Shown piece after piece: positions 406-43,225 of a stretch of DNA of 46,243 bases. Below the pieces are notes generated by a model. It did no database searches. It was given only the letters and a program-made list of their open reading frames with translations, and was not told the origin of the DNA. Source of the DNA: Candidatus Amesbacteria bacterium RBG_19FT_COMBO_48_16 (GTDB lineage Bacteria > Patescibacteriota > Microgenomatia > CAZETR01 > Amesbacteraceae); the NCBI GenBank assembly GCA_001775555.1, contig MEXE01000042.1:1-46243 (forward strand), in the 5' to 3' direction. The first letter of the stretch is position 1, and each line of letters opens with the position of its first letter. The position numbers and the translations under genes are program-made.

Positions 406-1734
406 CTATTTCACTTCCAGCTCCAGAAGCACTACGCTGTTTGGTTGCATAGCCACTTCTTTTTGCAGCATCGCTCCCGGCGATGCTATTTCTGCTGTAG
501 TTGTTCCTGTCCCTAAAATCGTCGTCCGCAACCGGTAATCACTGGGAACCAACCCCAAAAAACTGACCGGAACAACTTCACTATGACTGCCCTTGGGATC
601 ATAATTAGTCAAAATTACCTGATAGACACCGTCTTTTTTTGCTCCGATTGCTCTCACCCAACTACCTTCACCCGTCACGGACAGCCTTTGATCTCCAAGC
701 GTCGAAAGCAGCACCAAAGCCTGGTATCGGGGCTTGCCTACCAGTCCCCATTGGCCGGAGACCGCAAAACTAAAACCCGATTTGGCTTTAAACATCAGCT
801 CTCTCGATACGGCCACCAAATGTGCCGCCCCGACGGCAGTATCGTTTGCCCCCCCCGCCTCACTCCTGGGTGCCATCTCAGTAATTATCTTTTCCACTTG
901 TGAAAAATACGGATGTCCTTCAATCCACCTGTCCGCTTTGGCAATGTCGTCACTATACCTGCCTACGTCCAGATCATACCGATGCCAGGAAAAAAAATCC
1001 AACCTTATTTTATTTTTCAGAATATACGGAAAAAAATTATTTATCCAGTTAGGATACAGTCCCGTTGTCCCGGGGCCCCCCAGTTTGAATTGTTTTACTT
1101 GGGAAGCAGCCGCCGCTCCCCTGGCTGCATACAAATACAGGTTCCGATAATCTTTTCCCCCTCCCATTTTCCATTTCCCGAACAAATCCGGTTCGTTCCA
1201 CACTTCGTAATATACTCCGTCTATCCCCATTTCCCCGCTGTAATGCTCTATTGTCCTTTGGACAACCAATGCCCACTCATTCCAATCCCGGGGAGGCGAG
1301 ACCGAATCGGACACAGCCAAAGCTGGCGGCATGTAAGACAGGGACAAAAATGGAATCGCCCCGGTTTCCCTGATTTTGTTTATTACTTTATCCAAGCTCC
1401 CCCAATTAAACACCAAACCCCGGCTGTCTCTCGACACCACCCCGAACTGGTCATAAATATGGTCAATTCTTATATACGCCGGCTTGACTGCCGCCACCTT
1501 GACTTCTAGGCCGTCCAAAAACCCCGGTAAGTTGTCTCCCCCCTGGGCCAGTCCCCGCCATACCTTAGGCAGCGGTCCCAGCTCCCGGTCGGTTTCTACC
1601 GCAATCGCCGCTAACCTCCCCTCCGCTCCTACCAGGTATCTCACCGCGTTATTGGCCAGCTTCAAAATTCCCGGGAGTAACAAGGCCAAAGCCACCACCC
1701 CGATAAATGAAATCGTCTGCTCCCTGTTTTTCAC
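406..1734 (-). CDS. Membrane-anchored glycoside-hydrolase-like protein (clan GH-A TIM barrel, GH39/GH5-like)
   Basis: 442-aa ORF with an N-terminal hydrophobic anchor ISFIGVVALALLLPGIL. YYEVWNEPDL (NEP acid/base motif) and a later IITE (candidate nucleophile) are spaced as in clan GH-A enzymes. The assignment rests on motif recall only. Confidence 0.55.
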   Translation of the reverse strand: MKNREQTISFIGVVALALLLPGILKLANNAVRYLVGAEGRLAAIAVETDRELGPLPKVWRGLAQGGDNLPGFLDGLEVKVAAVKPAYIRIDHIYDQFGVVSRDSRGLVFNWGSLDKVINKIRETGAIPFLSLSYMPPALAVSDSVSPPRDWNEWALVVQRTIEHYSGEMGIDGVYYEVWNEPDLFGKWKMGGGKDYRNLYLYAARGAAAASQVKQFKLGGPGTTGLYPNWINNFFPYILKNKIRLDFFSWHRYDLDVGRYSDDIAKADRWIEGHPYFSQVEKIITEMAPRSEAGGANDTAVGAAHLVAVSRELMFKAKSGFSFAVSGQWGLVGKPRYQALVLLSTLGDQRLSVTGEGSWVRAIGAKKDGVYQVILTNYDPKGSHSEVVPVSFLGLVPSDYRLRTTILGTGTTTAEIASPGAMLQKEVAMQPNSVVLLELEVK

Positions 1735-26883: not shown

Positions 26884-28299
26884 ATGCTTTCACCCCGTCC
26901 GCCCATAATTGTCATCCTGGGTCATGTTGACCACGGCAAAACAACCCTCTTGGATTACCTGCACCAAACGAACGTCACCGCCGGCGAAGCGGGTGGTATC
27001 ACTCAACATACCCGCTCTTTCCAGCTACGATCTACAAACCACGAACTACTAACCTTCATAGATACTCCCGGTCACGCCGCCTTCTCCCAAATGCGCTACC
27101 GTGGGTCTTCGGTTGCTGACCTGGCAATACTGATAGTCGCCGCCGATGACGGGGTCATGCCCCAGACTCTTGAATCCATCAATTTTATCCGTCAAACTGC
27201 TGTGCCTTTTTTGGTTGCCATTACCAAAAGCGATCTCTCTGCCGCAGACCCCCAGCGCGTCAAACACCAGCTGGCCGAAGCCGGGGTTTTAGTGGAAGGA
27301 TCGGGAGGGCAGATTCCCGCGGTCTCCATCTCTGCCAAAACCGGCCGGGGCATTCCGGAACTATTGGAGATTATCCACCTTCTGGCTAGTCTATCTCCTC
27401 CCCAGTCAGACCCCGAAGGCTCCCTGGAAAGCTTCGTCCTTGAAAGCCGTCTCGATTCAAAAAAAGGCCCTTTGGCTGTCGTCATAGTCACCAACGGCAC
27501 TCTCAAAATCGGCCAGCCCCTGTTCCAGACGGAAAATATTGGCAAAGTCAAAGCGCTGTTCGATTCACAGGGGCAACCGGTCACCCTGGCCCTTCCCGGA
27601 ACTCCGGCAGAGATTCTGGGCTTATCCCGGGTTCCTGCAGTCGGCTCTCTGCTTGCCGACAAAATCACCTCCCCCCCCGCAACTTCACCTCAAACGGATA
27701 AGACCCAAGCCGAGGCATCCGCAGCCCGATTCAATATTATTCTCAAAACCGATGTGGCTGGTTCTCTGGAAGCTGTCCGGTCTTCACTCGGCCCCGAAAT
27801 ACAGGTTATTTATTCAGGAACGGGCGATGTCAACGACAGTGACGTTCTTTTGGCTCGTAGTTCCCAAAGTTTGATTGTGGCCTTTAATGTCAAAGTCCCT
27901 TCTGGTGTTTCTAAGCTGGCCGAAATTGAGAAAGTCCGCATTTTATCCTCAAATATTATCTATGAACTTCTCGACAATCTTAATAAAATTACTTCTCCCC
28001 AGTCCGAGGAGACGATACTCGGCAAAGGTCAAGTTCTGGCCGCGTTCAAAATCGGCCAGGACCGGATTGCCGGCATCCGCTGCACCGAAGGAGTCATTTC
28101 CAAATCGGATACCGTCAAACTCCTCCGCGGCGACCTGCCTTCAGGCACTGCGAAAATTAAATCTCTCAAGATTTCCAAAAATGACGTCATTTCGGTTAAG
28201 TCCGGTACGGAGTTTGGGGCTATATTCACGCCTTACCTTGACTTTAAAGTCGGTGATAATATAATTGCCATCGTCACCCATGGCCCGACCAGATCTTAG
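26884..28299 (+). CDS. infB: Translation initiation factor IF-2, minimal form (471 aa)
   Basis: The G1 motif begins at residue 13 ([14 protein letters not shown]), followed by DTPGH and the C-terminal beta-barrels. An in-frame TAG at 26863-26865 excludes a longer N-terminus. Confidence 0.92.
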   Translation: MLSPRPPIIVILGHVDHGKTTLLDYLHQTNVTAGEAGGITQHTRSFQLRSTNHELLTFIDTPGHAAFSQMRYRGSSVADLAILIVAADDGVMPQTLESINFIRQTAVPFLVAITKSDLSAADPQRVKHQLAEAGVLVEGSGGQIPAVSISAKTGRGIPELLEIIHLLASLSPPQSDPEGSLESFVLESRLDSKKGPLAVVIVTNGTLKIGQPLFQTENIGKVKALFDSQGQPVTLALPGTPAEILGLSRVPAVGSLLADKITSPPATSPQTDKTQAEASAARFNIILKTDVAGSLEAVRSSLGPEIQVIYSGTGDVNDSDVLLARSSQSLIVAFNVKVPSGVSKLAEIEKVRILSSNIIYELLDNLNKITSPQSEETILGKGQVLAAFKIGQDRIAGIRCTEGVISKSDTVKLLRGDLPSGTAKIKSLKISKNDVISVKSGTEFGAIFTPYLDFKVGDNIIAIVTHGPTRS

Positions 28300-29185
28300 C
28301 CAGTTGAAGGCCTTGCTTGAATCTGCCCGTTTGGTAAGCGTCCTTCTTCCCCAAAATCCGTCCTACGACTCTGTGGCTTCAGGGTTAGCTCTTAAATTAT
28401 CCTTGGAATCCTTAGGCAAATCAGTAGCCGCGGCTTGTCCTGATTCTATGACGGTCGAGTTCAACCGTCTGGTGGGCGTGGACACCATTACCACCTCTAT
28501 TACCAATAGGGATCTGCTGATCACCTTTGCCGATCAGACCGAGCATGTGGACAAAGTCAGTTATAACCTCGAAGGCGGACAGTTGCAGTTGGTGGTTACT
28601 TCCAAACCCGGCTCGCCTCATCTCGACCACACCCGGCTCCGTTTTGTCTCCGGGTCAGGCAAGTCTGATCTCCATATTCTGGTCGGAGTCGATCAACTGC
28701 TTCATCTGGGCTCGATTTATCACCAGGCCAAAGACATTATTTCTGCCTCTCCAGTAGCTTCTCTCACCCGGCAATTGCCGGCAGAGAATTACACTCCCCA
28801 CCAATATTACGACCCGGATACCTCTTCATTATGTGAGTTGGTGACTCTTATTATTGATTCCTTAGGGTTACATTTGCCGGTTGACGCTGCCTCCAATCTC
28901 CTCTCCGGACTTGAAATGACTACCCAAAATTTCCAGTCCCATTTGGTAACTGTCGGCACTTTTGAAGTCGCCGCTCATCTTCTCCGCCAAGGTGCCCGGC
29001 GTCACCAGGCTTTTGATCCCGGCCATCTCCCTCCCGGCTCCATTCCCCAAGCCCCCCAACCTTCCTCACAGCTGGGTTACGGTACCGACAGCCAACCCGT
29101 CGCTCCTCCGGATAAAGCCGACGCCAAAGAACCTCCGCCTGACTGGTATGAACCCAAAATTTACCAAGGCCCCATGCTGCCCTAA
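28280..29185 (+). CDS. DHH-family (NrnA-like) fold protein with degenerate catalytic motifs and a Pro-rich tail
   Basis: The layout matches the NrnA N-domain, but motif I reads LLPQNPSYDSVASGLAL where H-x-x-P-D-x-D-x-x-G-S is expected. The DHH position reads VGVDQLLH and the DTG position reads LEMTTQNF. No DHHA1/GGGH region is present. The start is placed at ATG 28280, overlapping the infB end. Confidence 0.5.
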   Translation: MARPDLSQLKALLESARLVSVLLPQNPSYDSVASGLALKLSLESLGKSVAAACPDSMTVEFNRLVGVDTITTSITNRDLLITFADQTEHVDKVSYNLEGGQLQLVVTSKPGSPHLDHTRLRFVSGSGKSDLHILVGVDQLLHLGSIYHQAKDIISASPVASLTRQLPAENYTPHQYYDPDTSSLCELVTLIIDSLGLHLPVDAASNLLSGLEMTTQNFQSHLVTVGTFEVAAHLLRQGARRHQAFDPGHLPPGSIPQAPQPSSQLGYGTDSQPVAPPDKADAKEPPPDWYEPKIYQGPMLP

Positions 29186-34200: not shown

Positions 34201-35856
34201 ATGGGCCAGTTAAAAATCATTCCCCTCGGCGGTTTCGGTAACGTCAACACCAACATGTTTGTCTATGAACTGGACAACGATATTTTGTTGGTTGATTGTG
34301 GTATTGGCTTTCCATCCGAAGACATGCTAGGTGTAGATGTTCTGATTCCGGACATCTCCTACCTCAAAGACAAGCTTTCTAAAATCAGGGGTCTGGTCAT
34401 CACTCACGGTCACGAAGACCATATTGGCAGTTTACCCTACATTTTACCCAAACTTCCGGACGTTCCCGTATACGCTTCTCGGCTTCCGGCCGCTTTAATT
34501 ATCGATAAGTTGAGCGAGTACCAGAGTATACCCCAAAATATTCATGTTTTACCCCAGAGACAACCGCTGTATCTGGGTCAATTTACCATTGAATCCATTC
34601 ACGTGACTCATTCCATACCCGATTCCACTCATCTTTTAATTTCCACACCCGAGGGGACTGTTTATCATGGTAGTGACTTCAAATTTGATTTCACCCCAGT
34701 TTATAAAGACTTCTCCGATCTTCAAAGAATTGCCCAGGCAGGGAGCCAAGGAATAGATTTATTATTATCGGATTGCTTGGGAAGCGAGCGTAAGGGGTAC
34801 ACCCCGTCGGAAACCACCTTAGACGATACGTTTGACCGCGAACTCACAGACTGTCCGGGTAAGTTTATTGTTACTTCCATAGGGAGTAATATCAGCCGTT
34901 GGTATCAGGCCTCCAAAGCAGCCGTCCGTAACGGTCGTAAAATTGTCCTAGCCGGCAGAAGCGTAGATCGTAATCTGGCTGTAGCCAAGAAATTGGGCTA
35001 TTACGATATTCCCCAAAATTCGTTTGTACAGTTGCATCAGGCCAAAAGACTGCCTCCCAATAAAATTTGCGTTTTAGCCGCCGGTTCTCAAGGTCAGACC
35101 GGCTCTGCTCTGGAAAGAATAGCCTCTGGTGATCATCGTGACATCACTCTCCAGCCATATGACAAAGTGGTTTTTTCCTCCGATTACATTCCTGGCACTG
35201 AAGCGTCCGTTGCCACTGTTATTAACGAGTTATCCCGCAAACAAGCCACGGTTGTCTATACCGCCATCACTGACAATTTGCATGTTTCAGGCCATGGCAG
35301 TCAGCAGGATCTTCTCTTATTATTAAGCCTCACCCGGCCTAAATACGTCCTCCCGTTTGGGGGTAATTACAATCAAATGGTTCAATATTCACGACTAGCT
35401 AAGTCTATGGGTTACCCAACCCAAAAGATTTTTTTACCCATGACTAATCAGACAGTCATTGTCTCAAATAAACAAGCCAGTCTTGGTCCAACTGTTTCCA
35501 TCAGAAACATCATGGTTGACGGTTTAGGTATTGGTGACGTCGGAGAAGTTGTTTTGCGTGACCGGCAACAGTTAGCCGAAGAAGGAGTAGTAATTGCTGT
35601 TCTCGAGGCTGACCAAAACGATCTGTCCAGCTTGGTCAACTTCGAATTGGTCAGCCGGGGATTTGTCTTTGAAAAGTACAGCACTGATTTGTTAAGCCGA
35701 GCCTCCGACCGAGTCAAAAAAGCCATTGCCACCAAACGCGGGAAAATTGAATCGGACCGGCACCTCAAACAACTAGTCATCGATACCCTCGGCCGCTATT
35801 TGTTTGAACAGACCCACCGTCGCCCCATGATTCTCCCTGTTGTGGTGGAAGTGTAG
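34201..35856 (+). CDS. rnj: Ribonuclease J
   Basis: Metallo-beta-lactamase HGHEDHIGSLPY plus beta-CASP and C-terminal domains; 551 aa. Confidence 0.93.
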   Translation: MGQLKIIPLGGFGNVNTNMFVYELDNDILLVDCGIGFPSEDMLGVDVLIPDISYLKDKLSKIRGLVITHGHEDHIGSLPYILPKLPDVPVYASRLPAALIIDKLSEYQSIPQNIHVLPQRQPLYLGQFTIESIHVTHSIPDSTHLLISTPEGTVYHGSDFKFDFTPVYKDFSDLQRIAQAGSQGIDLLLSDCLGSERKGYTPSETTLDDTFDRELTDCPGKFIVTSIGSNISRWYQASKAAVRNGRKIVLAGRSVDRNLAVAKKLGYYDIPQNSFVQLHQAKRLPPNKICVLAAGSQGQTGSALERIASGDHRDITLQPYDKVVFSSDYIPGTEASVATVINELSRKQATVVYTAITDNLHVSGHGSQQDLLLLLSLTRPKYVLPFGGNYNQMVQYSRLAKSMGYPTQKIFLPMTNQTVIVSNKQASLGPTVSIRNIMVDGLGIGDVGEVVLRDRQQLAEEGVVIAVLEADQNDLSSLVNFELVSRGFVFEKYSTDLLSRASDRVKKAIATKRGKIESDRHLKQLVIDTLGRYLFEQTHRRPMILPVVVEV

Positions 35857-38800
35857 ATATACCAAACTCACCAAACATCCAACCCTCTTCTCCGTCAAAC
35901 TTGATAAGGAGCCAGCCGTCTTGTTCTTTAAGAAGTTGGAAAGTTTGGCCGACCTGGACCTTCGCGACTACCTCGGCGCTTTTCATAGGTGTACGGCGGA
36001 CTAGTATCCAGTCATTTTTGTTGCCGACCACTTCAACCAACGGCTTTTTGAGTAGCTGACCCTCGGTGCTGGTCCCTTTGACTTGCGCACTCTTGTTAGA
36101 CGGGGTAGTCAGGGTGTAATAGGCGTCATAGACATAATTTTTGTTTTGGCTCATGACTTCAAAAAAGTAAGTTTTGCCAGCTTCTAAATTAGTTAGCTCC
36201 ATTCTGTGTTCTTTTACCCGCTCACTCGATTGGACTTTACTGCCATACGACGTATCAAAACCATAGTTGACTGCTGAAGTGGCATGATGGTTGGTCAGCC
36301 AATGGATGACGGCGGAAGTAGGGGTCACAGCCTCTACCTTTACCAAGAGAATCTTTGTCGGTTCTTTGTCAAACCATACTTCTTTGTAAATTTCAACGGT
36401 TAGTTGTGTTTTAGCCACTAAACGGTCTGCTTTTTGAGTAATACTGTCTGTTACTCTAGCCAATGGATTTGTAATTTTTCCCATCGCCAAAGCTGTGTTT
36501 TGAGCAAGAGCAGTGGTTATTATTCCCACACTGTTTGCCGCGCTGGCAATTACTGATCCTGTTTTTTGCAGGGTATTGGTTATGGCTTTTGCTACAAAGT
36601 TGGCTGTATTTCCAATTCCGGTCAAAATTATCTTGGCTACCCCCGGCGCATTATTAGCTAAACGGTTATATCCCTCGCCAATAGATTTGGCAGTGTTACC
36701 GATGCCTTGTCCGACTGCTACTAATAATGTTTGGGTTGTCTTTCCGAAAGCAGTAAGTATTTGGCCAACTCCTCGCCCCACAAAGGCTAGGCTTTGGGTA
36801 ACCGCATAAGCGGCTCGACCAATAATTGTTTTTGTGAAAGCATCGGTTTTTTGATTGGTTCCAATAACGAATGCCTGGTACCTACTCCAGGCGGTTGCCA
36901 GTGAATTCGTGGTGGTCTTGCCCGTATCGACCAATCCCCACCAAAGATTAGCTAAAGTTTCGGCGATCTTTGAACCAACAACTTCCAGGACATTCGGTTT
37001 TTCAACCGCCGTAGGTTTAGTGATTTCCAGTTCTTCTTTGACTTTTTCTTTTTGCTCCGGTGCTAGCGGTTTGGTTTCTTCCTCAATTATTTTCTTTTCT
37101 TCGGGTGTGGTTATTTGAGCCAGAGTAGTGACATTTAACGTTAGCGTTGTTTCGCTTGAAGGGTTATCCGCTTTATCTTTTCCGGTTAATGTAATTTTGT
37201 ATGTCCCGTAATCTAAGGTATCTTTGGATGTGTATTCAAAAGTCAAATATTTGTCGCATTTCTGTTTTGAATTATCAGCAACCTCTTTACCGTCACAACT
37301 CCACCAAGGTTTATCCATGTTGATGGTGTAGAGGGTTATCAGTTTGTACCCTAGTCCTTCTTTCTTCTCAACTTTTATCTCAACTTGCTTGGGACCGGAA
37401 GCAATTTTTGGTCCATTTTCATCCTGGGTCTGAGTAGAATCCCCACCGGCAAGTGAATCAGTGATTTTGCCAAAGATAGTCGGGGTTTTATCGGTTGTAG
37501 AAAAATTAGTTGAAGAAAAAGGAATATCGTTAATTTGGGTCAGTTCTACTTTTGGACTGTTTCTGTCTACAAACAAAGTTCTTGAACTTGACGTTTCATT
37601 CCCTGCATTATCAACTGCCCTTACCTTCCAAGAAACTCTCCCTTCCCGCAGTTTCCCGTCATTTTGGCCGGAGTTACTGTCAGAGCTCCATTCACTCGAA
37701 GACTTGGTATAAACAGAAATGTAGTTATTGGTCGAATCGGAATCGGAAAAGTTCTCGTAATGAATGAGGTATTTATTTGTTTCGTAGTCGGTGGTTCTTG
37801 AAGTGGGAATGTCGTCAATGGTGAAGTCACCGCTGGCTTGCCCTGAGCCTGCCGAAGGGTTATCTATTTCCAAAACATACTTTGAAAGTCCGGCGGTGGC
37901 ATCAGTTGTAGCCTTCCATCTAAAAGTAGGTCTTTCTGAATTTGTATAAGTATCTCCTCCCGGCGAATCTAAGTCAAATGAGGCAGGAGCAGTGGTATCA
38001 ACAGTAAAAGTATCAGAAGCGTTAGTTGAGGTATTAGAAGCATTATCCGTAGCTCTGACGTAAACCGTATGTTCCCCATCGCTTAAGCTTGAAAGCTGAC
38101 AAGTGAAAGCCTCTTCTGCTTCATCAAAGTTTGAGTCATCTGCACTACAGCTGGTCCATGACCCTGAAGTTGCATCCACCTGGAATTCCACTGTTGAAAT
38201 GGTGCCTCCGGTATCAGTGGCTGTGCCGGATATGACGGGTGTGGAGTCGGTGGTGGGATCAGGTGAAACTGCGGTTAGGCTAACACTCGGTACTCCCGCA
38301 TCCACGCTAAATGAATCTGTCCCGTAATCAACCTCTGCCGTGGTGTTGGCGGCTTCATCCGTTGCCCGCACATAAACAGTATGGCTGCCGTCTGCCAACG
38401 CTTCAGTTGTACAGGAAAAGTCTTCTTCCGTCTCATCGATTGTTCCGTCTGTTGCAGTACAATCAGTCCAGCTGCCTGCAACGGAATCTACTTGAAATTC
38501 AATGTCTGTCAAAATGGTGGTCCCGCCATTGGCCGTTCCCGTAAATGCTGGTGTATTGTCAGATGTGGGATCAGGAGTCAAAGCGGTCACACTGACACTC
38601 GGAGCCGTGGTATCCACTGTCACACTGCCTTCGCTTTCACTGCCCAGATTAGTGGCATTGTCAACGGCTTTGACAAAAAACGAATAGATGCCTTCTGCCA
38701 GATTGGTGGTGGCGGTAAGAAGTGCAGTCGTTCCTGAGGCCACCTGGGTTAAAGCTGCATCAAGAACTCTCCAGGCATAAGAGGCCACACCCGAAAGTGC

Positions 38801-41800
38801 ATCAGTGGCAGCAGACCAGACCCAGACTTGGGTGGTGGAGTTGGTAGGAGTATCAGTTGTAGGAGTTCCCGGAAGTCCAGGTGCTGTGGTGTCAACGGTA
38901 AAGGTATCACTGCTCTCGCTTCCACCGGCTGTAGTATTGCCGTTTGAATCAGTGGCCCGCACATAAATAGTATGTTCCGCATCAGACAGGGCAGAGGTGG
39001 TGCAAGTGAAAGCCTCTTCTGCTTCATCAAAGGTGGCATCATCAGCCGTACAGGCTGTCCAGCTGGCTCCGGAGCAATCACCTCCTGCACAGTCCATGGT
39101 AAATTCAACAGTTGATACTGTGCCGATGGCTTCTGTTGCTGTTCCGGTTAAATTCGGAGTATTATCATTATTCGGATCTGGTGATAAAGCAGTTAAAGAA
39201 ATACTTGGGGCAGTGTTGTCAAAAACAATGCTACTGAATGTGGCATCTCCCTGGTTGCCTCCTGATGTGTCACTTCCAAAGTAGACGGTGTTGGGAGCTG
39301 TGCCAAATGCAGATGGGATTGAGGATAAAGTAATTCTAGTAGTTCCTCCCACCTTAAAGGTCATGGTTGAGCTACCGGTGTATGCCACTTCTGCTGCATA
39401 TTCGGTATTGGCAGCAATTGCACTGGTGGCATCCCACGTCCCTGTTCCAGTGGTTCCTGCCATTGAATAATCCATCTTTACATTATTGGCTGAATCCCAA
39501 TAGACTTTGATGTAATCATCCGCATCACCATTGAAAGAGATAACGTAGGCATCATCGCTCGTTGTCTCGGCAAACTTGACGCTATCTGCTCCAGCATGAC
39601 GGGGACGGAAATTAAACGACACAAACCCAGACGTGGTCCCGATTGATGAAGCGGAACTTTGCACATACGTATCCCTCCCATCCACCCGAATCTCATCCGT
39701 ATTTTCAGTCGAATTGGCCTCCGAAGCTGGGGTGACTGTAAGAGAAACATCTGTGAGTTGAAATTGATACACATCATCAACAAATCGATTTCCAGTCGCC
39801 GAGGATTTTGGATTTATACTAATCCTTTCTGCCGCAGTACTTTGAGTACGGTAAATGGCATAAAGGGGGTTCCAAGAAGCAAGTATTGATGAATTTACTT
39901 GATCGTTTGACGTTTCATTTTGAAGAATAAATTGAGCACCTGCCCCTTCGAGCCTGAATCCAACTCCGCCATCACCATACGTATATAAACCTGTCGAGTA
40001 AAATTTACTTCCAGTAACTGTTCTGCTTGGGTTTTCCCATACCACTTCATTGGCCGCTCCTGTATTAAACTGGATTGAACTCGAACCACTGTGAACAATT
40101 GTAAGACTCTGGCTACTATCGCCTGCATCAAGGTTACCTCCAGCCCAACCATCAGGAATCCACGGATCTCCGGAACCTGTTTCCATTGATGGTTTGTTGA
40201 CTAAGTTACTCAGCACCTCCACCTGGTGCCAGTAGGCGGTGCCTGAAGCTTGGGTATTCACCAGCTTCACTCTGAGCGTAGTCGAAGAGGCCGGGGCTTC
40301 ACCGGTGAAGATAAAAACATTTGGTGCGGCGCGGGTGCTGGTCGTTGTACCGGTAAGAGAACCTATTTCGGCCCCGTTGGTCTGGTCATAAAGAATGACT
40401 TTGGGAATACTTGTGCCATCCGAGTGGGCAATGGCTCTTATCACCCAATCATCTCCTGCGGTTACAGTTTTGTCATAATAGATCCCCTGATTCGCCGCAG
40501 ATGAGGTAGTCTTATACCCTCCTGCAAATATTTTTTCAGAAGTGGAAAGTGCTGAAACTGTAGGAGGAGCTGTGTAGTTGACGACGAGTTTTGGACGATA
40601 GGCGGCGGTAGCGTTATCTGAAGATGCAATAGAGGTTCCACCATTACTCGGATCAAACAGTATTCCATAATTTGTGTTAGTTTCTCCAAACCATTCCTGA
40701 ACCCGGCTAGCTGTTAACTGTGTCGAATATTCTGTTCCGATAGGGTCAGTTTGATTTCCAGAAAAAGAACCAATAACATCAGATTCATAATCAGTACCAG
40801 CCGTCGACAATCCTGCAGATCCAGCCCAAGGTGTTTCATTACCAGGAGTTTGATCTTTATAGCTCCAACAACTATCCCCAGCTACACCTGTAGCATTATT
40901 TTTCGTTCCTTCAGGCCAATCTGCATTACCGGAGGCAACAGAATAGACACTGACAGTCCAGGCTCTATCAGTACCAGTATTGTTTCGATATGTATATAGT
41001 GTTGCGCTATTTAAAATAGCTGAAGCAGAAATATTACTTAAATCGAATTCAATAAGAGCTTTATCAAAAGAGGAAGTTAATAAAATATTATGTGTTCCAT
41101 AATTTCTAGTGATATCGTTACTATATGAATATAACCTTGTATCTTTCCCAGCTGTCTCATCTGGTTGTAAAGTCAAGCTTTGCGTATCACCATTTTCTGT
41201 TGCCCAACCATCCGAAGTATATGTCCCGTTCATCATGAACCCGCCAGTGTTGGTGGTGGAGGTATAGAGAAGATTTGATGCATGCGGATGTGTCCAGGCA
41301 TTGCCGGTGCCTGTCGCGAGCGCACCCGTTGAAGAATTAGTGGGAAGGGCAAACACCACATCCCAGCTTCCGGTAATCAAAGTCGGATCATTTCCGCTTC
41401 CGGAGTTGTAAATCTGATTTATCTCATCCCCATTGCCTACATCAATTCCATATGTGCCGTCAAAAAGTGGGCGGCGATATATGGTCAAGCCTTCGATAAC
41501 AGAATCGGATGCAAGCGATGTATTACTAGCACCAGCGTAAAAATTAGTATTTGTCGAGGGGGATGGGATAGTGGTGACACCATAAGTATGTGAATCGTTA
41601 ACTGAAAGTGAGAGGTAGTTAGTACCATTCAACGTGTTATCAATATCCCACCTGGCAATCACGTTGTATGTTGTGCCAGCAGTCCAGGTTGAAGCATCTA
41701 CATCAACTATCTGTCCTCCTACATTAAATCTTAGATTATTATTTGAAAATTTAAAAAGGGCTCCGCCGCTTGAACCCTGACGCCACAGGTAGTGATTTTT

Positions 41801-42274
41801 TCCGTCATTACCATTCCATTCCGGAGTAACCCACATCACAACCGATCCCTGATTCAAATCATAGACATTTTTAAATTCACTAGATAATGTTGTGCTTGAG
41901 GTGTATCTTAAATTGTCAGGTGTACCGGTTCCATCATAATTTCCTTGTACAATCGGTGCTCCCGCAAACGGTCCCGGCCCGTCTCTTTTGGCCATCCCGG
42001 CAGTGAACGTGACTGCGTATGCAGGAAGTACCGATGATAAGAAAAGGGAGAGGATGAGGAATAAGGATATGAAATTTCTCGTCGCTGCGCTCCTCGAAGA
42101 ATAAACAGGTATTATTGTTCGAACGAAGTGAGAACTACGAGCGGTCGGAAACAGACTTCTCGCTAGCGCTCGAAGAGTAATACCGGACAATATCGTTCGA
42201 ATGAAATGAGAACTAAAAGCCAACCGTCCAAAACTTCTCACCTTCGGTTCGAAGAATAGTAACTTTTTCAGCAT
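35777..42274 (-). CDS. Giant multidomain cell-surface protein (~2165-2175 aa): membrane anchor, LamG-like, DNRLRE-like, Ig-like repeats, G/A/T-rich segment, FN3, SH3b
   Basis: A single uninterrupted ORF. The hydrophobic anchor is NFISLFLILSLFLSSVLPAYA (~42015-42076). A concanavalin/LamG-like region spans ~41450-42010. A DTRLYS...ALIEFDL...YRPKLVVNY region resembling DNRLRE domains spans ~40575-41150. The segment ~39215-40575 was not assigned, although AYVISFNGDADDYIKVYW...MTFKVGG suggests a second LamG-like region. Three VDTTAP-delimited Ig-like modules plus an interposed module span ~37990-39215. A Lys/Glu linker, a G/A/T-rich segment (~36400-36985), an FN3 domain (~36110-36400) and an SH3b domain (~35860-36060) follow. 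The start is ATG 42274 or ATG 42304. No canonical start codon lies nearer the anchor. Confidence 0.85.
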   Translation of the reverse strand: MLKKLLFFEPKVRSFGRLAFSSHFIRTILSGITLRALARSLFPTARSSHFVRTIIPVYSSRSAATRNFISLFLILSLFLSSVLPAYAVTFTAGMAKRDGPGPFAGAPIVQGNYDGTGTPDNLRYTSSTTLSSEFKNVYDLNQGSVVMWVTPEWNGNDGKNHYLWRQGSSGGALFKFSNNNLRFNVGGQIVDVDASTWTAGTTYNVIARWDIDNTLNGTNYLSLSVNDSHTYGVTTIPSPSTNTNFYAGASNTSLASDSVIEGLTIYRRPLFDGTYGIDVGNGDEINQIYNSGSGNDPTLITGSWDVVFALPTNSSTGALATGTGNAWTHPHASNLLYTSTTNTGGFMMNGTYTSDGWATENGDTQSLTLQPDETAGKDTRLYSYSNDITRNYGTHNILLTSSFDKALIEFDLSNISASAILNSATLYTYRNNTGTDRAWTVSVYSVASGNADWPEGTKNNATGVAGDSCWSYKDQTPGNETPWAGSAGLSTAGTDYESDVIGSFSGNQTDPIGTEYSTQLTASRVQEWFGETNTNYGILFDPSNGGTSIASSDNATAAYRPKLVVNYTAPPTVSALSTSEKIFAGGYKTTSSAANQGIYYDKTVTAGDDWVIRAIAHSDGTSIPKVILYDQTNGAEIGSLTGTTTSTRAAPNVFIFTGEAPASSTTLRVKLVNTQASGTAYWHQVEVLSNLVNKPSMETGSGDPWIPDGWAGGNLDAGDSSQSLTIVHSGSSSIQFNTGAANEVVWENPSRTVTGSKFYSTGLYTYGDGGVGFRLEGAGAQFILQNETSNDQVNSSILASWNPLYAIYRTQSTAAERISINPKSSATGNRFVDDVYQFQLTDVSLTVTPASEANSTENTDEIRVDGRDTYVQSSASSIGTTSGFVSFNFRPRHAGADSVKFAETTSDDAYVISFNGDADDYIKVYWDSANNVKMDYSMAGTTGTGTWDATSAIAANTEYAAEVAYTGSSTMTFKVGGTTRITLSSIPSAFGTAPNTVYFGSDTSGGNQGDATFSSIVFDNTAPSISLTALSPDPNNDNTPNLTGTATEAIGTVSTVEFTMDCAGGDCSGASWTACTADDATFDEAEEAFTCTTSALSDAEHTIYVRATDSNGNTTAGGSESSDTFTVDTTAPGLPGTPTTDTPTNSTTQVWVWSAATDALSGVASYAWRVLDAALTQVASGTTALLTATTNLAEGIYSFFVKAVDNATNLGSESEGSVTVDTTAPSVSVTALTPDPTSDNTPAFTGTANGGTTILTDIEFQVDSVAGSWTDCTATDGTIDETEEDFSCTTEALADGSHTVYVRATDEAANTTAEVDYGTDSFSVDAGVPSVSLTAVSPDPTTDSTPVISGTATDTGGTISTVEFQVDATSGSWTSCSADDSNFDEAEEAFTCQLSSLSDGEHTVYVRATDNASNTSTNASDTFTVDTTAPASFDLDSPGGDTYTNSERPTFRWKATTDATAGLSKYVLEIDNPSAGSGQASGDFTIDDIPTSRTTDYETNKYLIHYENFSDSDSTNNYISVYTKSSSEWSSDSNSGQNDGKLREGRVSWKVRAVDNAGNETSSSRTLFVDRNSPKVELTQINDIPFSSTNFSTTDKTPTIFGKITDSLAGGDSTQTQDENGPKIASGPKQVEIKVEKKEGLGYKLITLYTINMDKPWWSCDGKEVADNSKQKCDKYLTFEYTSKDTLDYGTYKITLTGKDKADNPSSETTLTLNVTTLAQITTPEEKKIIEEETKPLAPEQKEKVKEELEITKPTAVEKPNVLEVVGSKIAETLANLWWGLVDTGKTTTNSLATAWSRYQAFVIGTNQKTDAFTKTIIGRAAYAVTQSLAFVGRGVGQILTAFGKTTQTLLVAVGQGIGNTAKSIGEGYNRLANNAPGVAKIILTGIGNTANFVAKAITNTLQKTGSVIASAANSVGIITTALAQNTALAMGKITNPLARVTDSITQKADRLVAKTQLTVEIYKEVWFDKEPTKILLVKVEAVTPTSAVIHWLTNHHATSAVNYGFDTSYGSKVQSSERVKEHRMELTNLEAGKTYFFEVMSQNKNYVYDAYYTLTTPSNKSAQVKGTSTEGQLLKKPLVEVVGNKNDWILVRRTPMKSAEVVAKVQVGQTFQLLKEQDGWLLIKFDGEEGWMFGEFGISTLPPQQGESWGDGGSVQTNSGRGYR
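37990..39215 (-). repeat. Intragenic tandem Ig-like modules (~100 aa each)
   Basis: Three paralogous modules of the form (V/I)S(L/V)TA(L/V)(S/T)PDP..D.TP...GTA......(S/T)..EF.(M/V)D...(A/G)SWT.C.A.D...DE.EE.F.C......L.D..HT.YVRATD, plus one interposed module (VWVWSAATDALSGVASYAWRV). Confidence 0.8.
42073..42265. repeat. ~80-bp tandem repeat, ~2.4 copies, at the 5' end of the giant gene
   Basis: The units start at 42073, 42155 and 42233 with A(T/C)TTCTC...(T/C)TCGAAGA(A/G)TA...(T/C)GTTCGAA(C/T)GAA(G/A)TGAGAACTA. On the minus strand they encode the repeated SSHF(I/V)RTI...RS peptide. Confidence 0.75.
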
Positions 42275-42747
42275 AATTTTCAATTTTAAATTTACAATTT
42301 TCATTGAATTTTCAGTTTATTAATTTTCATTTAATACTTTCTTCTTTGAAACGATTTTAGAAAAGATCAGGTTAAATTCCTGCGCTTCTTTCCATAAATC
42401 ACGGCATTCTTGCTTTAAGTTTTCATCGTCTAAGGCATTACCAAGAAGTCTTAGCCAATATTTCGTTTCCCTCGATTCTTTTTTACAAATAAATATCTTG
42501 CTATTGAAGTCTTTTTTACTTGATGCACCATTAGCTTCACAATAATTGGCTCCAATACTTGTTCCAGAGCGGATCAACTGATCAAGTATTGGAATCGTGA
42601 CTGGGTTTTTAGGACATCTCTTGCACAGATCAACTATCCTTTCGGCAAAAACAGTTGTTCTCTCCTCCAAATCGTATTTATTTGAAACTTGAGTCATTGT
42701 TCAAATGTAAATTGATTGAAAATTGAGAAATGAAAATTGAAAATTAT
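42273..42747. mobile_element. ~475-bp cassette carrying the four-helix-bundle gene, bounded by A/T-rich inverted repeats
   Basis: ATAATTTTCAATTTT at 42273-42287 is the exact reverse complement of 42733-42747. The flanking ~40 nt on each side are similar in composition and motifs. The right repeat forms the aberrant C-terminus of the Bro-N fragment. Confidence 0.4.
42320..42697 (-). CDS. Four-helix-bundle protein (23S rRNA intervening-sequence protein / Avd family)
   Basis: 125 aa. ...LIRSGTSIGANYCEANGASSKKDFNSKIFICKKESRETKYWLRLL is the hallmark of this family. Confidence 0.85.
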   Translation of the reverse strand: MTQVSNKYDLEERTTVFAERIVDLCKRCPKNPVTIPILDQLIRSGTSIGANYCEANGASSKKDFNSKIFICKKESRETKYWLRLLGNALDDENLKQECRDLWKEAQEFNLIFSKIVSKKKVLNEN

Positions 42748-43030
42748 AATTGGTGGCTAACTCGGGATCTTCTATCTCCTGCATCCGTTCATAGCCAACT
42801 CTTGCTAACCAGCGTTTGAACGGCAATTTCAGTTGTCGACAAAGTGTCGACAACTCAACACCGCTTGACTCTTTTTCTCTCTGTTTCATCCGGTACCAAT
42901 AATCTCTTGGCTTATTACTATCTGTTAACGCTTCGATAATATCCACAATAGAAAAATACCACTCGTTTGCGTGGATAGTTTTTCGTATTTTTTTACCTTT
43001 GAATATCGCAATTTTTGTTGTTTCAACCAT
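42701..43030 (-). pseudogene. Bro-N domain protein fragment (internal deletion and truncated C-terminus)
   Basis: MVETTKIAIFKGKKIRKTIHANEWYFSIVDIIEALTDSNKPRDYWYRMKQR...STLCRQLKL joins directly to PFKRWLARVGYERMQEIEDPELA. About 30 residues normally found between these blocks are missing. It then runs into repeat-derived TNYNFQFSFLNFQSIYI-stop. Full-length relatives continue for well over 100 aa. Confidence 0.65.
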
Positions 43031-43225
43031 TATGTTACTTGTATCAGTTTTGAGCGTAAAAAACAATTGAAAAAAGAGGAGCGAAGGCCGCCGGCCTGCC
43101 CGCCGAAACTTTAGTATAGGCGGGAGCTGACAAAAGAGCTGCAAACCGCGCTGGTTATATATCCGTTAACTCTCGTTTGGTTGCAAACTCGAGTACGACG
43201 GCCATAGAAGGGATATAATAAAAAC

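Follow-up and report, generated by a model that had tools for sequence, protein, structure and literature searches.

What is encoded by a 6.5-kb open reading frame (ORF) lodged among housekeeping genes of Candidatus Amesbacteria (Microgenomates, Patescibacteria), a bacterium from groundwater that is still uncultured? The frame occupies positions 35777 to 42304 (minus strand) of contig MEXE01000042.1 from Candidatus Amesbacteria bacterium RBG_19FT_COMBO_48_16; "the window" below means the whole stretch of 46,243 nucleotides that was analysed. Our answer, to which we assign a probability of about 0.55, is that the gene encodes a Sec-exported, non-catalytic giant glycan-binding adhesin, tethered to the cell wall by an SH3b domain. 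Profile searches and structure models delineate the architecture, and it is from this architecture that we infer the function. An earlier note on the same DNA had called the product a candidate attachment factor, which appears to be a fair and plausible reading of the sequence and agrees with the literature on giant Patescibacteria surface proteins.

How ultra-small Patescibacteria find and hold other cells is known mainly from a few cultured Saccharibacteria. The window protein represents, in intact form, a family to which many small genomes devote a substantial share of their coding capacity, and it has a clear head-stalk-anchor layout. When adhesin candidates are considered in this phylum, giant surface proteins rich in lectin-like and FN3 domains are already favoured, so no expectation is overturned here, and databases have contained the sequence, labelled hypothetical, since the release of the Rifle genomes. 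What is new is a domain-resolved map, a corrected N-terminus, a conserved cassette with an insertion slot, and a recurrent helical and FN3 (with or without SH3b) C-terminal unit. With the domain boundaries defined, the conserved cassette can be converted into a family model, and the head, the insert and the SH3b domain can serve experimenters as constructs.

An intact giant gene

The ORF consists of 2175 codons and a stop, without interruption, and makes up 14.1% of the window. The longest ORF in the other frames within it does not exceed 119 aa, and its own length is far beyond chance. The earlier note had described one uninterrupted frame filling about 14% of the window, which is accurate; its figure of ~2170 aa was roughly right (the exact value is 2175 aa), and the strand, which it left unstated, is minus.

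The product belongs to a 90%-identity cluster of 43 sequences, 15 members of which are listed. Among those listed, all 14 full-length or start-trimmed members are at least 99.6% identical to the window protein. They derive from independent Rifle-aquifer Candidatus Amesbacteria assemblies of different samples (KKW01069.1 / UniRef100_A0A0G1Y3F4 are cluster members from this group, 99.86% identical), and none of these near-identical members has a name beyond hypothetical or uncharacterized. The 6.5-kb frame is therefore open in 14 assemblies, which indicates that the gene is real and intact rather than a fusion or a pseudogene, and which argues against the frameshifts or stops that the earlier note had named as refuting evidence. 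Moreover, curated hidden Markov models (HMMs) or homologues span the whole length of the product.

Domain architecture

The order of parts proposed in the earlier note proved essentially correct when HMMs, profile-profile comparison, and AlphaFold2 (AF2) models searched with Foldseek were applied, and the lectin, Ig, FN3 and SH3b folds were each backed by one or another of these approaches. The features are as follows.

35777..42304, minus strand: whole annotated ORF, 2175 aa plus stop
42110..42304, minus strand: annotated N-terminal extension ("basic tail"), residues 1-65
42014..42109, minus strand: predicted Sec-type signal peptide, residues ~66-97, with h-region FISLFLILSLFLSSVLP and predicted cleavage between AYA and VTF
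41375..42013, minus strand: module A, a LamG/ConA-like jelly roll, residues 98-310, opening with the conserved mature N-terminus TFTAGMAKRDGPGPF
41150..41374, minus strand: highly conserved module A tail, residues 311-385, with motifs TGSWDVVFALP and AWTHPH
40577..41122, minus strand: DNRLRE / CBM96-type domain, residues ~395-576, between cassette parts A and C1
40100..40552, minus strand: module C1, a beta-sandwich resembling carbohydrate-binding modules (CBMs), residues 585-735
39695..40099, minus strand: module C2, a second beta-sandwich, residues 736-870
39233..39694, minus strand: module C3, a second LamG-like jelly roll, residues 871-1024
37988..39217, minus strand: extender part 1, residues 1030-1439, comprising Big_13 copy 1, an FN3-like module (residues 1150-1234, lower confidence) and Big_13 copies 2 and 3
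37127..37987, minus strand: extender part 2, residues 1440-1726, two larger Ig-like modules, the first with FRWKATTD...VSWKVRAVDNAGNETS motifs, the second Y_Y_Y/cadherin-like
36992..37126, minus strand: Lys/Glu-rich helical linker, residues 1727-1771, with the motif EELEITKP
36371..36991, minus strand: Gly/Ala/Thr-rich segment, residues 1772-1978
36107..36352, minus strand: FN3 domain (Pur_ac_phosph_N-type), residues 1985-2066, with the motif EVMSQNKNYVYDA
35864..36040, minus strand: C-terminal SH3b domain, residues 2089-2147
35777..35863, minus strand: unstructured C-terminal tail, residues 2148-2175, and stop

The head (residues 98-1024) carries two LamG-like modules. For module A, whose LamG-like core spans residues ~130-283, comparison with a Laminin_G_3 profile built from homologue domains gave an hhalign probability of 91% (E 1e-6, over nearly the whole template), in agreement with the LamG/concanavalin-like domain of the earlier note. 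The corresponding values for C3 were 96% and 2.6e-9, and A and C3 matched each other at 94.5%. AF2 models A as a beta-sandwich with a confidence (pLDDT) of 70-86 and C3 with 80-93, and the C3-equivalent region of the homologue P0022 (P numbers denote homologous proteins, L numbers loci) gives a passing Laminin_G_2 match of 35.8 bits. The gathering cutoff of PF13385 Laminin_G_3 was not reached, with no match in residues 96-385 and 13 bits (E=0.12) at residues 875-1019. Profiles and models together point to remote ConA-like/LamG homology and a predicted jelly-roll fold for both A and C3.

The tail of module A contains columns that are invariant in the homologue alignment and are among the most conserved of the protein; on a more speculative view, the segment with AWTHPH and TGSWDVVF might have a function of its own, in metal binding or processing, instead of forming a plain lectin surface. 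The adjoining DNRLRE-like domain, already suspected in the earlier note, is recognised by NF033679 with 43.5 bits (cutoff 34, E 3e-11, 158/164 profile positions). PF24517 CBM96 scores 23.6 bits on the same region, just below its cutoff of 26, and a sequence-only PDB search with this piece returned nothing significant.

What the earlier note had listed as further beta-rich modules are indeed beta-rich, but are better described as two CBM-like sandwiches (C1 and C2) and a second LamG (C3). C1 (AF2 pLDDT 75-94) shows a weak profile match (E 5e-3) to PDB chains 2zex and 2xom, which we take to be CBM16 and CBM61 modules, and Foldseek retrieves the tandem CBM22 4xup and Cry/Vip3 CBM-like domains. 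C2, which AF2 models as beta strands (pLDDT ~65-80), has no HMM match and is conserved in ~95 homologues. Neither C1 nor C2 has a detectable sequence relation to LamG or to the other. With the model of the whole head, Foldseek retrieved tandem CBM22, GH101 CBMs, Cry-protoxin/Vip3 CBM-like domains and laminin/agrin/neurexin LG domains (E 1e-8 to 1e-4) and, from the viral library, phage tail-fibre, minor-tail and ConA-like proteins; all these matches concern whole multi-domain models, hence their low TM-scores. Searches of Pfam, NCBIfam and PHROGs revealed no catalytic family in any part of the protein.

The C-terminal half (residues 1030-2175) is modelled with a mean pLDDT of 76. Its stalk contains six beta modules, with pLDDT 85-93 in part 1 and ~90 in the two larger Ig-like modules. 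The three Ig modules with VDTTAP linkers of the earlier note correspond to three Big_13 copies, each with a Cys pair and with VDTTAP or VDAGVP at its end, and its extra Ig/FN3-like modules correspond to three more beta modules beside this trio. PF19077 Big_13 scores 81.2 bits (cutoff 27) over six stretches as tandem copies, and there are further matches to NF047446, OmpL47-type and Ca_tandemer; in part 2 Big_13 reaches 32.7 bits and Y_Y_Y matches weakly. DNA repeats spaced 312/591 nt fit the repetition of Ig modules. Cys residues are paired within the Ig-like modules, which is consistent with an extracytoplasmic location. Foldseek matches the stalk to the SiiE BIg domains (2yn5) and to the adhesin extender 6xi3 (E 1e-10 to 1e-13, TMt 0.4-0.55 over the repeats), and also to the S-layer protein 7ptp.

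Beyond the stalk, the Lys/Glu-rich linker announced in the earlier note is borne out by composition and by the helices of the AF2 model, and its EELEITKP motif is conserved in P0113, P0119 and P0120. The Gly/Ala/Thr-rich segment, put at ~190 aa, measures ~200 aa and is modelled, with low confidence, as long helices (58, 52 and 30 aa, pLDDT 32-69). Its maximum hydropathy of 1.4 is too low for a transmembrane segment, and neither Pfam or NCBIfam nor a sequence-only PDB search gave a significant match; phage tape-measure PHROGs match weakly (E 2e-4), probably through composition. The FN3 domain exceeds the cutoffs of PF16656 (30.6 bits, cutoff 30) and PF00041 (28.4, cutoff 25) and is modelled with pLDDT ~90. 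The terminal SH3b domain, like the FN3 domain foreseen in the earlier note, matches PF08239 SH3_3 with 44.1 bits (cutoff 27, residues 2102-2147) and SH3_4 with 27.5 bits. AF2 gives it a small beta-barrel (pLDDT 82-90), and it has weak NCBIfam matches to the wall-binding SH3 domains of Bacillus EntFM/EntA/B/D; a sequence-only PDB search with the FN3 and SH3b piece gave nothing significant.

Other proteins, short ones included (P0111, P0113, P0118-P0120), also have the linker, helical and FN3 unit at their C-terminus; SH3b follows FN3 in P0110, and P0112 has both domains. An exhaustive search of representatives with the helical and FN3 query gave 4882 representatives at E<=1e-3, mostly multi-copy FN3 proteins; among the top 150, the match extended over the helical part in only ~5. 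The helical module is thus clade-restricted, and this type of FN3 is extremely common in giant multi-FN3 proteins. The giant protein contains no LPXTG motif, no RTX repeat (GG.G.D) and no C-terminal hydrophobic or transmembrane segment.

The N-terminus

The only strongly hydrophobic segment of the protein is residues 78-97 (Kyte-Doolittle peak 2.1), which the earlier note had taken for a membrane anchor. The orthologues argue for another role. Those with the cassette at the N-terminus (P0004, P0006, P0009, P0010, P0011, P0022 and others) start 10-35 residues ahead of their hydrophobic segment, which ends in A-x-A and is directly followed by the conserved mature N-terminus TFT.GM.KR.APGPF. The junction of AYA with VTFTAGMAKRDGPGPF in the window protein matches this A-x-A junction, and no lipobox was found in the protein. 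Because the A-x-A sites of the orthologues immediately precede the conserved mature N-terminus, the hydrophobic segment most likely acts as a Sec signal peptide that is cleaved off, and not as a membrane anchor.

The same comparison bears on the basic, repeat-encoded N-terminal tail of the earlier note. It is repeat-encoded: a 78-nt (26-codon, in-frame) tandem repeat lies within it (42113-42161 / 42191-42239, 71% identity), a third partial unit follows downstream of the tandem pair, and the repeat is found nowhere else in the window. However, the orthologue starts align at about query residues 65-68, and residues 1 to ~65 have no counterpart in any orthologue. The first ~10 codons, including the annotated ATG, sit in one arm (42273-42324) of an AT-rich inverted repeat (42273-42324 / 42696-42747; 52 nt, 79% complementary), and when two strains were compared, 3/8 amino-acid differences fell in the extension, at codons 4, 6 and 11. 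Absence from orthologues, the repeats, the inverted-repeat overlap and the strain differences together suggest that the extension is probably an untranslated leader, or at least not functional protein, and that the ORF as annotated is over-extended. Some public annotations begin instead at M104, which removes the signal peptide; the conserved sequence upstream of M104 argues against this start.

A riboswitch or other leader RNA in the repeat-bearing leader was considered and rejected: its predicted fold is no better than that of shuffled sequences (z=0.17), and no Rfam family matched. The inverted repeat brackets the upstream gene (42320-42697, minus strand), which encodes 125 aa with a PF05635 match (23S_rRNA_IVP / four-helix bundle); gene and inverted repeats together resemble a small inserted cassette that directly precedes the giant gene. 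In P0003, the nearest full-length orthologue (locus L002 5001-5250), the signal peptide and mature N-terminus are apparently duplicated in tandem, with two hydrophobic segments and L(N/T)F.(P/A)G after each, which echoes the repeat-bearing 5' region of the window.

A widespread cassette with an insertion slot

A BLAST map of 108 homologues revealed two blocks common to ~95 of them, residues ~96-383 (A) and ~580-1030 (C), at 35-62% identity; residues 400-580 are common to only ~7 of the 108. The family is defined by colinear modules A, C1, C2 and C3 and by the motifs TFT.GM.KR.APGPF, TGSWDVVF and AWTHPH, all of which the window protein has. HMMs of A, C1, C2, C3, DNRLRE and LamG were then run over the homologues (~105 cassettes). 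The earlier note had advised a comparison of domain order among orthologues; in the homologues the order A-C1-C2-C3 is fixed, and the unit is at times duplicated. The A/C1 junction acts as an insertion slot, which is empty in 48 cassettes and holds one LamG in 13, two LamGs in 18, DNRLRE in 3 and unassigned sequence in ~22. The cassette of the window protein has no direct Pfam, NCBIfam or PHROGs match. The earlier note did not recognise the combination of domains; the N-terminal cassette is in fact common to ~100 giant Patescibacteria proteins and the helical and FN3 unit recurs, yet the exact full-length arrangement is lineage-specific.

When the species genomes of GTDB were scanned, 51 loci emerged; they belong to Roizman-, Woese-, Gottesman-, Shapiro-, Collier- and Dojkabacteria, WWE3 and CPR3; some of the bins carry doubtful automated labels, several of them outside the Candidate Phyla Radiation (CPR). 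The Roizmanbacteria metagenome-assembled genome (MAG) ELA620 has at least five cassette loci (L006, L008, L025, L029 and L037) and MAG ELA588 has four (L018, L024, L027 and L051), which implies a large coding investment and a repertoire of paralogues in small genomes of ~1 Mb. Paralogues often carry the cassette after other LamG modules, at ~500 aa from their N-terminus. Three proteins of ~1,800 aa (P0023, P0024 and P0027) join an N-terminal cassette to a Peptidase_C25 (gingipain-type) domain, and these fusions suggest that the cassette can act as a general targeting module for an enzyme. Across Patescibacteria classes, module A retains 45-62% identity. A more far-reaching idea, interesting but in our view improbable, sees in the cassette a device dedicated to host docking throughout the lineage of Microgenomates-type Patescibacteria, perhaps throughout the phylum. 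Its conserved part would bind some universal component of the envelope, and specificity would be adjusted by the exchangeable insert.

Strain variation

The earlier note had suggested a search for diversifying selection in the lectin-like domains, and no sign of it emerged from the shallow variation available: assemblies of the near-identical protein differ at 12 variable residues, none of them in the lectin head, and the strain variants contain no substitution in residues 12-1257. Window positions 36023-36046 (codons 2087-2093, in the linker just before SH3b) account for 6/11 codon differences from locus L001, all within 7 consecutive codons, in a comparison of strains that are >99.7% identical; this cluster may be a small recombination or conversion patch.

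Proposed mode of action and its alternatives

According to our proposal, the signal peptide would be cut between AYA and VTF, as the orthologues suggest. The free N-terminal ~930 residues would then make up a head built from five sandwiches of lectin/CBM type (LamG, DNRLRE/CBM96-type, CBM-like, beta-sandwich and LamG), with the six Ig/FN3-like modules and the long helical segment as a spacer. The C-terminal FN3 and SH3b unit, together with the helical unit, would hold the protein non-covalently on peptidoglycan, most simply that of the cell's own wall, as the role of SH3b in monoderm wall-binding proteins suggests. The head would bind glycans of another cell's envelope or extracellular polysaccharide (EPS). 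By analogy, such a layout (N-terminal ligand binding, a repetitive stalk and a wall-side C-terminus) would be that of monoderm surface adhesins, with non-covalent SH3b in place of LPXTG.

Several observations weigh against this proposal. No ATG, GTG or TTG occurs from codon 39 to the h-region, which would make the n-region unusually long (at least 37 aa). Most orthologues stop at FN3 and lack SH3b, so SH3b is not a general anchor of the family. The DNRLRE insert and the module A tail are poorly modelled by AF2 (pLDDT <50), because few aligned sequences contain them. No host-interaction locus is tied to the giant gene within the window, where its neighbours are housekeeping genes that are not syntenic in orthologues. 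The SH3b domains of lysins bind the wall of the target cell, and the polarity could therefore be reversed. Finally, the conservation of module A is unusual for a host-specific adhesin tip, and the ligand could instead be a conserved self component.

Reversed polarity can be stated precisely: the N-terminal segment would be kept as a signal anchor, and the C-terminal SH3b would be the distal tip gripping host-cell peptidoglycan. SH3b domains of lysostaphin-type lysins do target foreign cell walls, the annotated n-region is long and basic, and the protein has no other covalent anchor motif. We nevertheless consider this arrangement unlikely, since all orthologues have canonical A-x-A sites with conservation starting exactly at +1, the basic extension is not conserved, most orthologues lack SH3b, and a cassette ~500 aa from the N-terminus, as in paralogues, does not suit a membrane-proximal role. 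A possible, though still improbable, alternative is that the protein captures glycans or organises the envelope or matrix instead of acting as an intercellular adhesin, its head resting on environmental or self-made polysaccharide (EPS or S-layer glycan); the protein would then serve nutrient scavenging, biofilm anchoring or surface-layer structure, or act as a scaffold that targets partner enzymes. In favour of this, the enzymes from which CBM-type folds and CBM96/DNRLRE are best known degrade polysaccharides (PMC9971899), the same cassette is joined to Peptidase_C25 in three homologues, a conserved ligand would suit the very strong conservation of module A, and Foldseek matched the S-layer protein 7ptp. 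The protein itself, however, has no catalytic domain, its immediate neighbours are not glycan-use genes, and its length and rod-like extender are more typical of adhesins that reach out.

Two further explanations concern the gene rather than the function of its product, and both are highly improbable. That it is an annotation artefact, i.e. several genes or a pseudogene joined through assembly, might be suggested by the disagreement of public entries on the start and by an 80-nt overlap with the RNase J gene, but the frame is open in samples of different origin, orthologues of 1375-2005 aa are colinear along most of their length, and domain evidence is continuous along the protein. That it is the target of a diversity-generating retroelement (DGR) or another hypervariation system is called to mind by the Avd-like four-helix-bundle gene (PF05635) that adjoins it upstream; DGRs, which are frequent in CPR, act on ligand-binding proteins (PMC8144416). 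For the window we rejected this candidate: no reverse transcriptase was found among ~31 ORFs scanned with Pfam (most of the ribosomal-operon stretch, ~7-20 kb, lay outside the scan), no template/variable repeat pair and no long imperfect direct repeat pair occurs anywhere in the window, the C-terminus has no C-type-lectin fold, and there is no hypervariable region, with the few variable residues all outside the lectin head.

Comparison with known systems

A function in host recognition has already been proposed for very large surface proteins of Patescibacteria that contain FN3, ConA-like and adhesin-repeat domains (PMC13059738, PMC11809585). The giant LamG/DNRLRE/FN3 proteins of this phylum share the cassette with the window protein (35-62% identity); they too combine signal peptides with FN3/LamG repeats, lack a catalytic domain and occur as several paralogues per genome; at NCBI they are automatically named LamG-like jellyroll fold, DNRLRE or fibronectin type III domain-containing proteins (P0026, P0049 and P0011). 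The window protein differs from them in its DNRLRE insert (3/~105 cassettes), its Big_13 extender and its helical, FN3 and SH3b C-terminus, which is found only in a small clade.

With SiiE and the MpIBP/LapA-type adhesins (2yn5, 6xi3) the window protein shares a long rod of tandem bacterial Ig domains that carries ligand-binding modules. In those proteins the ligand-binding modules are C-terminal and are accompanied by C-terminal RTX repeats and a type I secretion signal; in the window protein they are N-terminal, the secretion signal is of the N-terminal Sec type, and there is no GG.G.D motif and no HemolysinCabind match. Candidatus Amesbacteria is not known to have an outer membrane; these other giant adhesins are those of Gram-negative bacteria. 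Sortase-anchored adhesins of the MSCRAMM type end in LPXTG, a hydrophobic segment and a basic tail, and the window protein has neither an LPXTG-like motif nor a C-terminal hydrophobic segment.

The SH3b domain, above the Pfam cutoff for SH3_3, resembles the SH3 domains of Bacillus EntFM/CwpFM and EntA/B/D and the targeting domains of lysostaphin and endolysins. It differs in being single and C-terminal on a non-catalytic protein of 2,100 aa, with no NlpC/P60 or peptidase partner, and its wall binding is a prediction from sequence. It was in surface proteins of Methanosarcina that DNRLRE was first noted (PMC2447325), and CBM96 is the alginate-binding module of a Defluviitalea alginate lyase (PMC9971899). 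The window domain scores above the NF033679 cutoff, but it has no attached lyase, and a ligand specificity cannot be inferred from its sequence.

Patescibacteria surface proteins with lectin-like and FN3 domains have been proposed to bind host-cell glycans (PMC10633639), and in the cultured saccharibacterium Southlakia epibionticum transposon sequencing (Tn-seq) identified envelope proteins with glycan-binding domains as essential (PMC10633639, PMC11665869). The Southlakia epibionticum proteins come from another class and have other domains (VCBS, dockerin); their likeness to the window protein is one of concept.

Genomic setting

On one side the giant gene is followed by a convergent RNase J gene (34201-35856), with which it shares an 80-nt 3' overlap (35777-35856); the overlapped portion of the giant protein is its non-conserved, unstructured tail. 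IF-2, PNPase, an AAA ATPase and UDG are the other neighbours on this side. On the other side lie the 23S_rRNA_IVP four-helix-bundle gene, a small ORF without assignment, FtsK and an HTH_25 protein. Synteny is not conserved: the orthologue loci of P0003 and P0010 lie among unrelated housekeeping genes, and these loci link no operon partner or secretion system to the giant gene. The rest of the window encodes HrcA-GrpE-DnaK, EF-Tu, EF-G, DnaJ and NusA, and the small ORFs at ~8-19 kb are read as a ribosomal-protein operon. An Rfam scan of the whole window found no family.

Two ORFs have no Pfam match, one of 306 aa (28265-29185, plus strand) and one of 147 aa (42701-43144, minus strand); the public gene call for the latter at locus L001 is only 109 aa long. 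A 442-aa ORF at positions 406-1734 (minus strand) matches Glyco_hydro_39 with 94 bits, and is among the few glycan-active enzymes of a window dominated by translation and chaperone genes.

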